Virus record (IMG/VR): IMGVR_UViG_3300045988_145460
DNA from: a virus
Direction: 5' to 3' (one strand)
Length of the DNA stretch: 33,977 nucleotides
Shown here: piece after piece, positions 11,076 to 17,019 of the stretch
How positions within the stretch are numbered: the first letter of the stretch is position 1
Layout: every line of letters starts with the position of its first letter
The notes under the pieces: generated by a model
Database searches by the model: none
What the model saw: the letters and a program-made list of their open reading frames with translations, nothing else
What the model was told of the DNA's origin: nothing
Translations under genes and position numbers: made by a program

Positions 11076-11247
11076 AACAAGAAATGCCTATCAAAAAAGA
11101 CTAGAAGATGAGAAATTGTTCATATCTTTATGTAATCAAATAGGAAAACAAAATGCCACAGCGAACAAAGAATGGATGAAACGTAAAGTCAGAGATTTAG
11201 ACAAGGAGATTGAAGAGTATGAACAAAAATCAATTACTGATTGTTAA
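11053..11247 (+). CDS. Hypothetical coiled-coil protein
   Basis: ORF in the operon orientation. The start is uncertain: ATG 11041 has no usable SD spacing, and 11053 lies 12 nt after GAGG. Confidence 0.4.
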   Translation: MKLETLVKTRNAYQKRLEDEKLFISLCNQIGKQNATANKEWMKRKVRDLDKEIEEYEQKSITDC

Positions 11248-11500
11248 TATTGCAGCTCTATTCTTAATATTCTTTCTATCAAGCATAAATCTAAACACAC
11301 GAATAAGAAAACTTGAGCAAGAAAATAGGGATTTGCAATGGGAAGTAGAAGAGCACGAATTAAGTATCCAACGAATGGCTGAAAAAAATACAATGCAGGA
11401 TACTATTCTAAATAAATTAAATCGTGAATATCAAATGCGTGAGCATGAACGAGCTCAGAAGCTGAAAGAAATTGCCGAACAGAACGGAGTAGGAGGATAA
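11219..11500 (+). CDS. Membrane-anchored coiled-coil protein (93 aa)
   Basis: AAGGAG lies 10 nt before ATG 11219. N-terminal helix [18 protein letters not shown], then a heptad-like charged region. Confidence 0.55.
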
Positions 11501-12162: not shown

Positions 12163-12612
12163 ATGCAGCTTTTTGATGATATCGATGAAAAAGAAACAAT
12201 AAGGAGAGCTAAGAAAAAGCTCTCAGAATATCCACGCTGGAGAGAAATAGCATGTGATGACCCAATTCAAAAAGTAACGCAGGAATTCACATTTCAACCC
12301 AGGGGAGGAGCAGGACCTAATAAAGCTGTCGAAAAATTAGCAGTTCGACGTGTTGATGCAATGATTGAGTTAGAAGAAATTGAACAAGCGGTAAGCAGGC
12401 TATTCAATCCTACTTATCGGTATATACTATTTTCCAAGTTTCTTAAAAATCAAAAAGATCTAAACTACGAAATTTACAACTATCTAGGTATAGAGAGGAC
12501 TAAATTTCAGGAACTGTACAACAATGCTTTATTAGCGTTTGCAGAGCAGTATCGAGATGCTGTGCTAGTATGTAATAAAAAAAACGGTATTTTTGCGGCA
12601 AAAATACGGTAA
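12163..12612 (+). CDS. ArpU-family late transcriptional regulator
   Basis: KKKLSEYPRWREIA...VDAMIELEEIEQAVSRL...YRYILFSKFL pattern. Position is the last early gene before the packaging genes. Confidence 0.75.
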   Translation: MQLFDDIDEKETIRRAKKKLSEYPRWREIACDDPIQKVTQEFTFQPRGGAGPNKAVEKLAVRRVDAMIELEEIEQAVSRLFNPTYRYILFSKFLKNQKDLNYEIYNYLGIERTKFQELYNNALLAFAEQYRDAVLVCNKKNGIFAAKIR

Positions 12613-12627
12613 ACATAACACAAAATA

Positions 12628-12639
12628 TGACTTAAAATA
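12628..12639. repeat. Left arm of a perfect 12-bp inverted repeat (TGACTTAAAATA)
   Basis: Exact reverse complement of 12761-12772. The arms are 121 nt apart. Confidence 0.8.
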
Positions 12640-12705
12640 GTATTATCAGAAAATGAAGGCGGTGGCCTGGTAGTTTTTTGTAGATCTCCTAATAGTATTT
12701 TTGGT

Positions 12706-12760
12706 TAGCTGTTCACCAGAGAAATTCGGGGTGGCATGGGTTCGAATCCCATACAGCTAA
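12706..12760 (+). ncRNA. tRNA-like minihelix (acceptor stem plus T-arm only), not a canonical tRNA
   Basis: TAGCTGT (12706-12712) pairs 7/7 with ACAGCTA (12753-12759). T-arm ATGGG-TTCGAAT-CCCAT at 12736-12752. Only 23 nt lie where the D and anticodon arms would be. Confidence 0.35.
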
Positions 12761-12772
12761 TATTTTAAGTCA
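12761..12772. repeat. Right arm of the 12-bp inverted repeat (TATTTTAAGTCA)
   Basis: Reverse complement of 12628-12639. Overlaps the 5' arm of the terminator hairpin. Confidence 0.8.
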
Positions 12773-12799
12773 GTTCTATTGGACTGACTATTTTTATTT
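12768..12799 (+). terminator. Intrinsic terminator directly upstream of the recombinase RBS
   Basis: Stem AGTCAGT / ACTGACT (12768-12774 / 12783-12789) with an 8-nt loop, followed by ATTTTTATTT. Confidence 0.6.
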
Positions 12800-12814
12800 G
12801 AAAGGAGTAGGTAA

Positions 12815-13381
12815 ATGCGTAAAGTAGAACCGATTCGGGATACAGATGATATTGAACGCATGAAGGATTACTTAAAGAGTAAGAATGAACGAGACTATGT
12901 AATGATGGTTACAGGGCTGTATTCAGGAATGCGAGTTAGTGATATCCTGCCCTTGAAAGTAAGAAGTGTTAAAGGAACTCACATTGAAGTGACGGAACGA
13001 AAGACTGGTAAAACAAAGAGATTCGCTATTAACCCAGCTCTAAGAAAAGCCCTGGATCATTATATAAAAGAAAATGAATTAAAGGATTATGATTACTTGT
13101 TCCCTTCGAGAAAGAAGGTTAACAATGAAGGACTTAGAATAACACATATTGGTAGAGTGGCAGCATATCAGATCTTGAGGGATGCAGGAGAGCATATTGG
13201 TTTAACAAATATCGGAACACACTCTATGAGGAAAACGTTTGGATACCATCACTACAGAAAGAATCAAAATGTTGGAATATTGATGGAGTTATTTAATCAT
13301 TCTTCACCAGATATCACACTGGGTTATATAGGGTTTAAGCAGGATGAGCTAGATAATAGCATGCTGAATTTTGCTTATTAA
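12815..13381 (+). CDS. Catalytic-core-only tyrosine recombinase (188 aa), a second recombinase in the element
   Basis: Intact catalytic set: SGMRVSD (Arg), KTGKTKRF (Lys), HSMRKTF (His-x-x-Arg), NHSSPDITLGYIG (His...Tyr). No N-terminal arm-binding or core-binding domain. AAGGAG RBS. Confidence 0.8.
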   Translation: MRKVEPIRDTDDIERMKDYLKSKNERDYVMMVTGLYSGMRVSDILPLKVRSVKGTHIEVTERKTGKTKRFAINPALRKALDHYIKENELKDYDYLFPSRKKVNNEGLRITHIGRVAAYQILRDAGEHIGLTNIGTHSMRKTFGYHHYRKNQNVGILMELFNHSSPDITLGYIGFKQDELDNSMLNFAY

Positions 13382-13510
13382 GGCTATGTATTTAACAAAA
13401 TGAGATAAAGTAAATTCATTTATTGATGATGGCTCACTTATATATGAGAGAGTAAGGTAGAAAGGCTCATGCTTCAAATTAACAGAATATAAGATATGTT
13501 AAATTCAAAG

Positions 13511-13558
13511 ACCCTCCCCCTCTAATAAAATAACACCCATCAACTTAAAAATACCAGG
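13511..13558 (+). repeat. C-rich imperfect direct repeat, unit A
   Basis: ACCCTCCCCCTCTAAT...AAAATAACACCC...AATACCAGG. Each sub-block has a counterpart in unit B. Confidence 0.6.
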
Positions 13559-13570
13559 CCTAATTATTAC

Positions 13571-13636
13571 ACCCTCCCTCATTAATTTACTCCCCCCTAT
13601 CTAACAAAATAATACCCCCCACTATTCAATACCAGG
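13571..13636 (+). repeat. C-rich imperfect direct repeat, unit B
   Basis: ACCCTCCCTCATTAAT...AAAATAATACCCCCC...AATACCAGG. Confidence 0.6.
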
Positions 13637-13670
13637 GGATTGATACCGAATAAGGGAACGAGGGTAAGGT

Positions 13671-14051
13671 GTGCAGGATGATATAAAACAGAGAAGACAA
13701 TCGAGGTATACAATGAAAGAACTACGGGCAGACCGTAATGGACCACATCGAGTAGCATTTGAAAAGAATAAGAAGATACTACTCAAGACTCAGAATACCT
13801 GTGGGATCTGTGGTCAACCTGTAGATAAATCACTCAGGTATCCCCACCCACTATCCCCAGTGATAGACCACATCATTCCAGTGAATAGGAATGGACATCC
13901 ATCAGACATCAAGAACTTACAGCTTGCGCATTGGCAATGCAATAGACAAAAGTCTGATAAGTTATATGCTGAACAAAATTTTGAAAAAAATGCAATTGTT
14001 GGAAATCGCAATTTGCCACAATCAACCAATTGGCTGAAATACCACAGTTGA
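13671..14051 (+). CDS. HNH endonuclease
   Basis: CGICGQ...DHIIPVNRNGHPSDIKNLQLAHWQCNRQKSDK (HNH/His-Me finger with Cys pairs). GTG start with GAGGG 6 nt upstream. Confidence 0.85.
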   Translation: MQDDIKQRRQSRYTMKELRADRNGPHRVAFEKNKKILLKTQNTCGICGQPVDKSLRYPHPLSPVIDHIIPVNRNGHPSDIKNLQLAHWQCNRQKSDKLYAEQNFEKNAIVGNRNLPQSTNWLKYHS

Positions 14052-14052
14052 C

Positions 14053-14099
14053 CCAGAACTGATAGGGGGGGTTACCCCCTCCCCTCGGTTCTGGCCGAG
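14053..14099. repeat. GC-rich nested palindromic element (candidate cos/packaging site or terminator)
   Basis: CCAGAAC / GTTCTGG (14053-14059 / 14088-14094) encloses G7-TTA-C5 and ACCCCCTCCCCTC. An overlapping hairpin CTCGG-TTCTGG-CCGAG lies at 14084-14099. The composition is strikingly GC-rich for this AT-rich element. Confidence 0.5.
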
Positions 14100-14152
14100 C
14101 TTCACGCCGTCACTGTACATATTTTCTCACGCCAAAACGAAAGGATAAGAAA

Positions 14153-15421: not shown

Positions 15422-16802
15422 TGTATTGCCTGGTCTTCTAAAAGAAGTACAGAGTCGTTTTGAAAGCGAATATGGGAAGAGCGAGGTTGTCAGTCGAGCT
15501 TTTGCAGAACTACAGGCCAAAAAAGCAACTTACAAGACAGCAAATGAGTTTGCTATCGAAGTTGGAGAAATTCTCTCTAAGGCTCTGGAAGCTTCTCTAA
15601 GCGCTGATAAATTACCAGATGGTAAAATGTATTACAATATTGCTCAACGTTTGTTATCGGACGTACTGGGACGTAATTATGAGATAATAAGTGGTTATAC
15701 TAGAGATGTTCAGAAAAAACTAAATGCAGATGCAAAAATCAGTTTGAAAGTACAAGTTCCTGAATTGAATCAGGATAGAGTTGCTGGAATAGTCAATCGA
15801 TTGGCATCTGAGGAAAATTTTGAAGATGTTAGTTGGTTATTTGGTGAGCCAATCGTTAATTTTTCTCAGTCTATCATAGATGATAGTATTCAAAAAAATG
15901 CTGAGTTTCATCATAAATCTGGATTACAACCCGAAATTATTAGAAAATCTTATCTCCATTGCTGTGATTGGTGTCAAGAGGTTCAAGGTAGCTATAAATA
16001 TCCAAAAGTTCCAAAGAATGTTTATAGAAGACATCAACATTGTCGTTGTACTGTTGACTATGATCCAAAAAGCGGGAAAGTTAAAGACATTTGGAGTAAA
16101 ATTTGGAGAAAAACAGATGAAAGTGATAAGATAGAAGCAAGGAAAGATATCAATGGGAAATCTCAAATGAGCGAAGTGAGAAAACTTGCGCTTCAAGAAG
16201 GAATTACCTCGAATCCTATCAAAAAAAGTCCTAAAAAACTAACTGAGAAGCAAATCATTGATGCCGTTGGCGGTGGAGATAAAACAAAAGGATCATGTTC
16301 ATCCGCAGCTTTTGCTTACATAGGTAATAAAGGTGGTTATACCGTTTTAGATTTTCGAGGAGGGGAAAGCTGTGACTTTTTTGCTAGAAACAGTAGAATC
16401 CAAATGATAGGAAATCTTCCTGGTGTTAAAATGCATGTTGTTAAACATACAAATGACTTTACTGCTGTCAGAGAATTGTTGGAAAAGGTAGAATCTGGGA
16501 ATGAATATTATTTAGCGGCAGGTAGACATGCGGCTATCATAAGAAAAAATGAAGGCCGTTTCGAATATTTGGAATTACAATCCAGAATATCAAACGGGTT
16601 TAAACCATTAGATAACATTGTTTTGAAAGAAAGATTCAAGTGTAAAAAAACGCATAGTACCAGACACGGCAAATATGAGGTGGAAAGTTGTATTATTGAT
16701 TCGGATTCATTGAAAGATAATCCTGAGTTCCATAATATATTGAGTTTCATTAACACAGCAGGTTCTAAACAAATGAAAGGAATTGAAGGCCATGAAAGAT
16801 GA
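15411..16802 (+). CDS. MuF / SPP1 gp7-family minor head protein with a roughly 220-aa C-terminal extension
   Basis: MuF hallmark CCDWCQEVQG...RRHQHCRCTV at ORF-track residues 189-220. Extra domain at residues 250-468, containing GSCSSAAFAYIG and AAGRHAAII. The start is set at ATG 15411, with GAAGGAG 6 nt upstream. Confidence 0.8.
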   Translation: MEHDVLPGLLKEVQSRFESEYGKSEVVSRAFAELQAKKATYKTANEFAIEVGEILSKALEASLSADKLPDGKMYYNIAQRLLSDVLGRNYEIISGYTRDVQKKLNADAKISLKVQVPELNQDRVAGIVNRLASEENFEDVSWLFGEPIVNFSQSIIDDSIQKNAEFHHKSGLQPEIIRKSYLHCCDWCQEVQGSYKYPKVPKNVYRRHQHCRCTVDYDPKSGKVKDIWSKIWRKTDESDKIEARKDINGKSQMSEVRKLALQEGITSNPIKKSPKKLTEKQIIDAVGGGDKTKGSCSSAAFAYIGNKGGYTVLDFRGGESCDFFARNSRIQMIGNLPGVKMHVVKHTNDFTAVRELLEKVESGNEYYLAAGRHAAIIRKNEGRFEYLELQSRISNGFKPLDNIVLKERFKCKKTHSTRHGKYEVESCIIDSDSLKDNPEFHNILSFINTAGSKQMKGIEGHER

Positions 16803-17019
16803 TCATGAAGAAATAAACTGGTCTGAATATTGCTATAAAGAAAATCATGATGACAAAATTTGGTGGGTTGATACGTCATTGTTTGCTAGAGGGTTGATGT
16901 TATTTACGTTTGATAAGGAAAAGTTCTATAACCTTTTTGAAGATTACCCTCAAAACATGACTTCAGAAGAGGTTGAAATCTTTGATAAAGAAAATCCATA
17001 TTGGGCTGAATTTTTTTAG
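16792..17019 (+). CDS. Small acidic protein (75 aa), candidate immunity/partner of the MuF extension
   Basis: Overlaps the MuF stop by 11 nt. Rich in D/E and W/F/Y. A terminator follows directly. Confidence 0.55.
   Translation: MKDDHEEINWSEYCYKENHDDKIWWVDTSLFARGLMLFTFDKEKFYNLFEDYPQNMTSEEVEIFDKENPYWAEFF

Follow-up and report, generated by a model that had tools for sequence, protein, structure and literature searches.

The locus described here lies at the head of the late region in the viral record IMGVR_UViG_3300045988_145460 of IMG/VR. The whole stretch that was analysed, 33,977 nt in length and referred to below as the window, shares 99% identity with a prophage of Streptococcus parasanguinis DD19. 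A gene that we call rec encodes a small tyrosine recombinase (Rec). It is preceded by arpU, the gene of a late-gene activator, and by a short structured leader, and it is followed by two dyad sites, A and B, and then by the genes for an HNH endonuclease and for packaging. An earlier, sequence-only reading of this DNA had recognised Rec as a recombinase of Fim-like size that is reduced to the catalytic core and stands at the head of the late region. Both the size (188 amino acids, aa) and the position were confirmed. The same reading had called the gene an orphan and had attached to it an inverted repeat that brackets it; neither of these two views held in the comparison with relatives. The coordinates of all features are collected in Table 1.

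Rec and the dyad sites linked to its gene

The rec open reading frame (ORF) begins with ATG just downstream of a ribosome-binding site (GAAAGGAG). The Pfam profile Phage_integrase (PF00589) covers residues 10–172 of the protein (E = 4e-20; 72.7 bits against a cutoff of 27.1), and the PHROG 216 "integrase" profile matches it with a value of 4e-67. In an alignment of 44 Rec homologs with identities down to 48%, residues R40, K63/K66, H136, R139, H162, and Y171 are invariant. They belong to the motifs GMRVSD (R40), KTGKTK (K63/K66), HSMRKTF (H136 and R139), NH (H162), and LGYIG (Y171), i.e., exactly those in which the sequence-only reading had seen the catalytic residues of the ORF at 12815–13381. 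The N-terminal motif V-E-P-I-R is conserved as well, with V4, P6, and I7 invariant and R8 present in at least 90% of the same homologs. Rec shares with the PHROG 216 clade the profile, the length (about 178–195 aa), and the N-terminal V-x-P-I-R motif.

The AlphaFold2 (AF2) model of Rec has a predicted local distance difference test score (pLDDT) of 92.3 and a predicted template modelling score (pTM) of 0.87. Foldseek relates it with a probability of 1.00 to IntI (2a3v), XerH (5jjv), XerA (5hxy), Cre, and the HP1 Int catalytic domain. In all five cases the model superposes on the catalytic domain only, and for the isolated catalytic domain of the HP1 integrase the template modelling score is 0.73 on the target. 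No core-binding, arm-binding, or other N-terminal DNA-binding domain is present in the model, and the catalytic Arg stands already at residue 40; the N-terminal domains had been reported missing before, and the superposition agrees. The ratio of nonsynonymous to synonymous substitution rates (dN/dS) is 0.01–0.02 in comparisons with relatives for which dS is about 0.22. At 95% amino-acid identity the rec DNA is just 81% identical, hence synonymous sites are saturated. Judged from the alignment, the model, and the substitution rates, Rec is a catalytically intact one-domain tyrosine recombinase under strong purifying selection, and its activity is predicted.

The best matches of Rec among curated sequence models are Xer families, each scoring far under its cutoff: XerA (61.7 bits; cutoff 220), XerS (40.2; 267), XerD (39; 330), and XerC (38.9; 335). 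The "tyrosine-type DNA invertase" model PRK09871 gives a weak, colinear match (31.5 bits; cutoff 222; E = 1.2e-7), and the invertase model PRK09870 yielded no match to Rec in the search of curated models. Since these scores fall below the cutoffs and the domain architecture differs, Rec stands outside all curated Xer and Fim families, and we place it in the tyrosine recombinase superfamily and, within it, in the uncharacterised PHROG 216 clade.

Site B, the second of the two dyads downstream of rec, can be written as a 28-mer (13477–13504), AATTAACAGAA-TATAAG-ATATGTTAAAT, with the 11-6-11 layout of dif. The 26-mer TTAACAGAATATAAGATATGTTAAAT within it (13479–13504) is unchanged in phages with 75% identity in rec and with diverged flanking DNA, and it can still be recognised in phage 315.1 (rec 51% identity) and in the satellite Javan297. 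On either side of this block conservation falls to background. In IMG/VR, AACANNATATAAGATATGT was found at 80 loci, 73 of them with enough flanking DNA; at 72 of the 73, a rec homolog lies 94–214 bp upstream (median 111) on the same strand, and the one remaining match is fortuitous, in an unrelated phage with AT-rich DNA.

Further motif counts refer to 211 dereplicated rec loci and to the 77 species-level loci within the comparison. Site B was counted by anchored motifs, because a generic palindrome scan around rec could not separate downstream from upstream sequence, the DNA being AT-rich and upstream terminators scoring well; our first regular expression, TTWACA...TGTWAA, was too narrow outside Streptococcus. 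The core AAGATATG occurs on the plus strand within 260 nt after the rec stop codon at 157 of the 211 loci, at offsets of 91–190 nt, as compared to none on the minus strand, two upstream, and a background of 0.017 per 260 nt. It is present at 29 of the species-level loci, including ones from Bacillus, Gemella, Clostridium, and Lachnospiraceae.

The dyad axis of site B falls between the first two bases of TAAGATAT. The centre is fixed and the arms covary between clades, e.g., TTAACA/TGTTAA here, GTAACA/TGTTAC in S. suis, CAGACA/TGTCT in the prophage locus L099, GTTACAC/GGGTAAC in Bacillus, and TTTGACA/TGTCAAA in Lachnospiraceae. Non-complementary arm positions comprise 84 non-wobble pairs and 14 G-T pairs, and mixed half-sites such as GTCACA...TGTTAA leave about three possible pairs; the predominance of non-wobble mismatches and the mixed half-sites favour protein half-sites on DNA over an RNA hairpin. 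Published dif sites read GGTGCGCATAA-TGTATA-TTATGTTAAAT in E. coli and ACTTCCTAGAA-TATATA-TTATGTAAACT in B. subtilis (PMC3025954). In our own alignment, the right arm of site B has 10 of 11 positions in common with the XerD arm of E. coli dif, and the 28-mer has 19 of 28 in common with B. subtilis dif. Site B is the top dif-like match in the 34-kb window and occurs there once. Its distance to the next gene varies among loci from about 30 to more than 500 nt. On a Macrococcus plasmid, a site GTAACACAA-TGTTAA-TTATGTTAC is situated 126 nt upstream of a rec homolog (47% identity).

Site A is a direct-repeat relative of site B with a conserved centre of its own, of the type CATAATGAG. Its core A[TC]A[AT][TC]GA[GA] was found on the plus strand within 80 nt of the rec stop codon at 117/211 dereplicated and 26/77 species-level loci, against a background of 0.039 per 80 nt. 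Rare variants of the arms recur in both sites, A and B, of one genome; the agreement of the A and B arms is 5.9 of 9 positions within genomes vs. 5.05 between genomes, a modest excess that is partly due to a 1-nt register shift in Lachnospiraceae. Both sites are tightly linked to rec, in a fixed orientation and at a constrained distance.

Table 1. Features of the rec locus, in window coordinates.
Feature	Position	Strand	Basis
ArpU-family late-gene activator, directly 5′ of rec	12163–12612	+	NCBIfam TIGR01637, 95.6 bits (cutoff 43.1); PHROG 248 "transcriptional activator"
Putative activator-dependent late promoter	12584–12638	+	Read from sequence; promoter-like match
Left arm of inverted repeat	12664–12685		Repeat search; not conserved; just 5′ of the decayed tRNA
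tRNA remnant, acceptor stem and T arm, GGTTCGAATCC	12706–12760	+	Rfam tRNA, 24.5 bits (gathering score 29), E = 0.02
Intrinsic terminator-like hairpin and T-run just before the rec ribosome-binding site	12768–12797	+	Terminator-like hairpins 5′ of rec at 120 of 211 loci
rec, 188-aa tyrosine recombinase, catalytic domain only (PHROG 216)	12815–13381	+	Profiles, alignment, AF2 model, dN/dS
Site A, dyad site directly after the rec stop codon, TATTTAACAAAATGAGATAAAGTAAATTC	13389–13417	+	Core counts; direct repeat (D3) with site B
Site B, dif-like core site, AAATTAACAGA / ATATAAGA / TATGTTAAATT	13476–13505	+	Conservation, linkage to rec, dyad, dif match
Right arm of inverted repeat, within the C-rich repeat region	13539–13560		Repeat search
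HNH endonuclease, cos-packaging type	13671–14051	+	Pfam HNH, 1.1e-11; PHROG 338
cos site, TTCACGCCGTCAC	14101–14113	+	Identical to the annotated 13-nt cos of phage SM1

Genomic context and distribution of the family

Downstream of rec, the genes for the HNH endonuclease, the portal, a MuF-like minor head protein, a 78-aa ORF, and terL follow each other, with cos between HNH and portal, which is an unusual gene order. Phage SM1 has the same layout (gp31-gp32-gp33-cos-gp34), and the succession ArpU, Rec, HNH, portal has one order and one orientation in SM1 and all 57 of the IMG/VR relatives (58/58). A recognisable ArpU, DUF722, Sigma70_r4, or DUF1492 gene stands immediately 5′ of rec in at least 35 of 79 species-level loci. 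The gene follows ArpU in Bacillus phages, the two genes overlapping by 1–4 nt at 13 species-level loci (Bacillales), DUF722 in 315.1, Javan6, and SpSL1, Sigma70_r4 in phiCD38-2 and others, and, weakly, DUF1492. In phages, the place of rec is nearly always between the late-gene activator, which it follows directly, and the packaging genes. At 46 of the 79 loci, no HNH gene lies within 5 kb of rec. A G/C palindrome (I2, G7/C-rich; 14053–14094) directly precedes cos, and the cos region is kept in numerous phages and satellites of Streptococcus. The DNA that separates site B from the HNH gene contains, at 13510–13640, C-rich direct repeats, CCTCCCCCTCTAATAAAATAACACCC and two relatives, which vary in number and sequence among relatives and in SM1-type phages contain inverted copies of the upstream GGAGT boxes. 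These repeats may be binding sites of the terminase or of the activator.

At the end of arpU, three boxes phased at 11 bp (ACGGTATTTTT, GCGGCAAAAAT, and ACGGTAAACAT; 12584–12616) precede a −10-like TAAAAT (12633–12638). Analogous phased boxes, differing by activator type, are found 5′ of rec in SM1-type, L023-type, and SpSL1-type phages. The box types go with the family or subtype of the activator: ACGGTA/GCGGCA with 11-bp spacing here, five copies of (T/C)GGAGT in SM1-type phages, two copies of GGAAAAAAGTTAAAAATA in L099, and TTGTCAAAAA/TTGACAAAA in SpSL1-type phages. They are situated where the activator gene ends or shortly after it, upstream of a −10-like element (12584–12616 in the window; about 2860–2930 in L030; 4750–4815 in L099; about 2395–2450 and about 3200–3260 in L065), and we consider them candidate operator sites for late activators.

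The leader between this promoter region and rec (12655–12797), which had been described as structured, is, by comparison with related loci, a decayed tRNA gene followed by an intrinsic terminator. ARAGORN predicts no tRNA anywhere in the window, and Rfam at its gathering thresholds, applied to the window and 17 related loci, has no match within the window; at permissive thresholds the window contains a sub-threshold tRNA match and a weak resemblance to SpF41, a Streptococcus small RNA (19.6 bits). Two prophages of the S. parasanguinis group have an intact tRNA gene in the same slot between activator and rec, tRNA-Ile(tat) in L099 (4861–4935) and tRNA-Lys(ttt) in L108 (4859–4935), and in both the order is tRNA, terminator, rec. 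Terminator-like hairpins occur within 110 nt 5′ of rec at 120 of the 211 loci, as compared to 5 and 2 in control windows. In SpSL1-type phages a unit of promoter plus terminator is found before rec and again before the HNH gene. The layout before rec resembles PR′-tR′ of lambda, and a terminator placed between an activator-dependent promoter and the rec start suggests, by this analogy, that the ArpU/Ltr "activators" might work by antitermination.

The inverted repeat reported in the sequence-only reading is present in the window: GGCCTGGTAGTTTT at 12664–12677 has an inverted 13/14 copy at 13547–13560, and the match extends to 18/22. The further AATACCAGG at 13628–13636 was found as well. Of 300 shuffles of the two intergenic regions, 3 (about 1%) produced an inverted match of 13/14 between them, and a second copy of the 14-mer is expected 0.01 times in the window; the repeat is unusual within this genome. 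It does not belong to the gene. In relatives whose Rec is 99% identical, the match has decayed to 10/14 (L011) and 12/14 (L013) with no compensating changes, and L012 and L021 have other sequence in place of the right arm. In the groups with 93–95% and 74–77% (SM1-type) Rec identity, the best inverted matches are at chance level (10–12/14), so that phages with rec orthologs lack the bracketing repeats, the very observation that the sequence-only reading had named as a refutation of its proposal. A second pair, 12628/12758, flanks the tRNA remnant and overlaps the terminator at 12768–12797. Searching the whole window for inverted repeats gave only operator-like repeats in the lysogeny region and no other convincing inverted pair. 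Four copies of YGGTAKTTT, against 1.4 expected, are present in the window, at 12585, 12668, 13548 (minus strand), and 31401. Three of these fall within 12585–13556, and the motif is contained in both arms of the inverted repeat and in the boxes at the arpU end; its copies may be activator-type boxes.

The family to which rec belongs is far from an orphan. We detected it by tblastn in 221 phage records, including those of phages from Streptococcus (131), Clostridium/Clostridioides (37), Bacillus (30), Listeria (4), and Staphylococcus (3). A protein search with Rec gave 1,595 clusters at 90% identity, and a species-level genome scan gave confirmed matches in at least 592 bacterial species. Full-length homologs (30–48% identity) are encoded on 1,931 plasmids of Firmicutes, e.g., in Enterococcus (600), Bacillus (342), and Lactiplantibacillus (272), and the sizes of these plasmids include 6.9–15 kb. 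Some are tiny plasmids of RepB type or with cadmium resistance, and on one E. faecium plasmid the rec homolog adjoins a plasmid-borne xerS. Outside Firmicutes, homologs with 44–48% identity occur in metagenome-assembled genomes of Gastranaerophilales/Melainabacteria (L134, L138, L141, L143, and L144). A plasmid protein annotated as XerD, from pBAS2, was considered as a member and rejected, being a full-length Xer. Two satellites of Streptococcus resembling phage-inducible chromosomal islands, Javan297 (L059; 11.7 kb) and Javan555 (L060; 10.0 kb), have a rec homolog after the primase gene, and Javan297 keeps sites A and B as well; they are about one third of the size of the 30–35 kb phages with the same rec module.

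Among described phages, SM1 gp32 is 75% and SpSL1_27 about 50% identical to Rec. In phIS3501, p21 is ArpU and p22 was described as a "second integrase" whose role is "not clear" (PMC3335513, 2012). The "second integrase" genes phIS3501 p22, SM1 gp32, and SpSL1 cds27 represent the same family in the same position as rec, and the papers on them name the gene and give neither target site nor function. A literature search for the function of the family or for the sequence of site B returned only statements of the kind "role not clear" and unrelated primer matches.

Apart from the rec locus, a 96-aa ORF at 11210–11500, in the early/replication region just before the gene of the single-stranded DNA-binding protein, weakly matches an Rz-like spanin PHROG (E = 1e-5). 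An N-terminal stretch of its product is hydrophobic, and the rest resembles a coiled coil. The location would be odd for a lysis gene, and the match is probably spurious.

Possible roles of Rec and its sites

The reading that we favour, with a probability of roughly 0.45, is that rec and sites A and B form a module of the Xer or Cre kind, a recombinase with its site, which acts between genome copies and interconverts multimers and monomers. On this reading, rec would be transcribed from the activator-dependent late promoter behind arpU, Rec dimers would bind each site, and the dyad pair A and B would be the cognate DNA. Site B, with inverted 11-bp arms, both of XerD type, and an asymmetric centre of 6–8 bp, would be a simple recombination core, and site A, as a degenerate direct copy, an accessory site. 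Two copies of site B would synapse on replicated phage, satellite, or plasmid DNA, strands would be exchanged via a 3′-phosphotyrosyl intermediate at Y171, and the exchange would convert monomeric and multimeric genomes into each other, leaving the rec segment uninverted. We infer the binding of Rec to A and B, recombination there, and also which direction, resolution or multimer formation, would matter. The pair consists of a recombinase gene and an adjacent cis core site on a circular replicon, as in multimer-resolution modules, with resolution itself predicted. Since the family is widespread on small plasmids, multimer–monomer interconversion is pointed to as its ancestral task. Dimer or concatemer resolution, one of the roles put forward in the sequence-only reading, is the part of that proposal that we retain, at other sites, 13389–13417 and 13476–13505.

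Several observations weigh against this reading. All steps that lead from a linked site to a substrate are inferential, and it is not evident why a lytic cos phage would have to resolve dimers. The exact site B core is missing at about one quarter of the dereplicated loci and at 48 of the 77 species-level loci, and several of the plasmid rec homologs have no neighbouring site that fits a strict dif model. Our reading does not account for the arrangement of A and B as direct repeats with unlike centres at a spacing of only about 89 bp. In its invariant centre, ATATAAGAT, site B has −10-like hexamers, and it often lies 30–60 nt before the next gene, so that it could be a promoter or an operator and not a crossover site. 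As to the time of expression, figure legends for SpSL1 put the rec homolog cds27 into the late transcription unit with the HNH gene, and one ambiguous sentence of the same paper puts a "recombinase" into the early operon (PMC6755750). A different view of rec and its sites, as a decayed integration module or an excisable cassette, was rejected in view of the strong purifying selection on the gene and of the location of both sites on one side of it.

Packaging of the lambda type requires a minimum of two cos sites in cis. It may be speculated that fusion of monomer circles supplies such substrates, which could also account for the retention of rec and the sites in satellites about a third as large as the helper. 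A bolder form of the idea, which we hold to be unlikely, makes Rec and site B a "crossover currency" shared among temperate phages, satellites, and plasmids of Gram-positive bacteria, i.e., a late enzyme for packaging substrates and module exchange and not a resolvase. If this were true, any pair of carriers could recombine, by virtue of the invariant centre of site B, where early and late modules meet, monomer circles would fuse into multimers that cos terminases can package (10–12 kb satellites, for instance, as trimers), and phages could swap late modules wholesale.

A doubtful alternative is that Rec is mainly a DNA-binding regulator at A and B, which switches the HNH/portal/terminase operon or its own gene, strand exchange being secondary or absent. 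The position of rec, always behind a late activator of whichever family, would fit such a role, as would the 1–4-nt overlap with arpU at the 13 Bacillales loci, the CATAAT- and TATAAG/TAAGAT-like hexamers in the centres of A and B, the frequent placement of B 30–60 nt before the next start codon, and a promoter-proximal terminator before rec that suggests a tightly staged cascade. However, a pure DNA binder would not need an invariant catalytic hexad at a dN/dS of about 0.01; moreover, the family is found on small plasmids devoid of late genes, in SpSL1-type phages a further, separate promoter of activator type comes after site B, and the spacing between B and the following gene ranges from about 30 nt to over 500 nt. 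That A and B are not sites of Rec at all, the target being elsewhere, we consider quite unlikely. In that case they could be RNA hairpins of the transcript between rec and the HNH gene, involved in processing, stability, or antitermination, or else sites of a host factor. Covarying arms around an invariant centre are indeed also the signature of a stem-loop, and the elements are strand-specific, but this explanation meets the excess of non-wobble mismatches (84 against 14) and the mixed half-sites with their three or so pairs, has no place for the dif-like site upstream of the gene on the Macrococcus plasmid, and leaves the 11-6-11 geometry and the similarity to XerD arms unexplained.

The remaining proposals give Rec another substrate or another task. 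As a Fim- or RecV-like invertase, it might act in trans on switches carried by the host chromosome or by other mobile elements. Its one-domain architecture is like that of RecV, and FimB and FimE have this architecture too; the PRK09871 match (E = 1.2e-7) points the same way, though its 31.5 bits stand against a cutoff of 222 and fall below the 61.7 bits for XerA. The RecV-type motif, AWAGTWNCCNTTW-N6-inverted copy, has no match in the window at up to three mismatches, the phage contains no candidate invertible segment, and a host-specific switch would not explain identical cis-linked sites across many genera, all of which makes this role improbable. Inversion in cis of 12664–13560, or of 12628–12772, as a switch of late expression was suggested in the sequence-only reading, and the 13/14 (18/22) repeat is real and unusual for the genome. 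Yet the repeat is lost in relatives with near-identical or orthologous rec, a single orientation is seen at 58/58 loci (assemblies showing the majority state only), the left arm and the 12628/12758 pair lie within or around the tRNA remnant and its terminator, YGGTAKTTT is common to the arms and to the boxes at the arpU end, which suggests repeated activator-type boxes, and the window offers no other inverted pair. Such an inversion is therefore unsupported, and we regard it as very improbable. Scarcely credible, finally, is the suggestion that Rec takes the place of the missing small terminase subunit in the recognition of cos. It is true that no small terminase can be recognised in the window, that rec lies about 700 bp from cos, and that the sole candidate before terL is the 78-aa ORF (16783–17019; PHROG 6473, unknown function, 2e-38). 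But phages 315.1 and Javan6 have rec together with an ORF of small-terminase size (the comparison being one of size only) directly before terL, the family extends to satellites and about 1,900 plasmids, and 46 of the 79 loci have no HNH gene within 5 kb.

With the recombinase–site module as the favoured reading, a vague "second integrase" annotation turns into a testable pair, Rec and a 30-bp site. If the pairing is true, it would represent a very small (about 180 aa) recombinase–site system with a layout like that of Cre/lox, and it would bear on the source of packageable DNA for cos phages and their satellites and on the question why mosaic boundaries of phages fall between regulatory and packaging modules.

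Comparison with known recombination systems

Among curated families, the Xer proteins come closest in sequence: the best curated matches of Rec are XerA, XerS, XerD, and XerC, and XerA and XerH are among the best structural ones. Site B has the inverted arms of about 11 bp and the 6-bp (up to 11-bp) centre of a dif-type site, its use by Rec being predicted. In XerS/difSL, the gene is linked to its site (PMC2731167), as rec is to A and B. On the other hand, Rec remains far under every Xer cutoff (XerA, 61.7 vs. 220) and has no N-terminal core-binding domain. Its gene is carried by phages, satellites, and plasmids and is not located at the chromosome terminus; and, unlike dif, site B has two arms of XerD type and is one of two tandem sites next to the gene.

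RecV of C. difficile is a tyrosine recombinase that consists of the catalytic domain only and works on 13-6-13 sites, which shows that such a reduced enzyme can recombine DNA; Rec has in common with it this architecture, the origin from Firmicutes, and arms that flank a 6-bp spacer (PMC12282940). In contrast to rec, recV is chromosomal, and its product inverts several dispersed switches. A search seeded with the rec homolog of a C. difficile plasmid revealed no obvious chromosomal C. difficile cluster, and the window lacks the RecV motif, as mentioned above.

The invertases of the FimB/FimE type have about 200 aa and the same spacing of catalytic residues as Rec. The similarity in sequence is weak (PRK09871, 31.5 bits vs. 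222), and near rec there are no conserved inverted repeats that would bound a segment, the orientation being the same at 58/58 loci.

Cre/loxP of P1, ResD/rfsF of F, and TnpI/IRS of Tn4430 are simple tyrosine recombinases borne by phages and plasmids, each together with one palindromic core site next to the gene. In the case of TnpI, direct repeats flank this core as accessory elements, which is reminiscent of sites A and B. Cre, ResD, and TnpI have two domains, unlike Rec, and none of the three is known to be encoded behind a late-gene activator. The fold of Cre matches the model of Rec; in sequence, the affinity of Rec to these enzymes does not go beyond the superfamily. By these comparisons, Rec and its sites would constitute a new variant, a mini-Xer with tandem dif-like sites at the junction of early and late genes that is common to phages, satellites, and plasmids.

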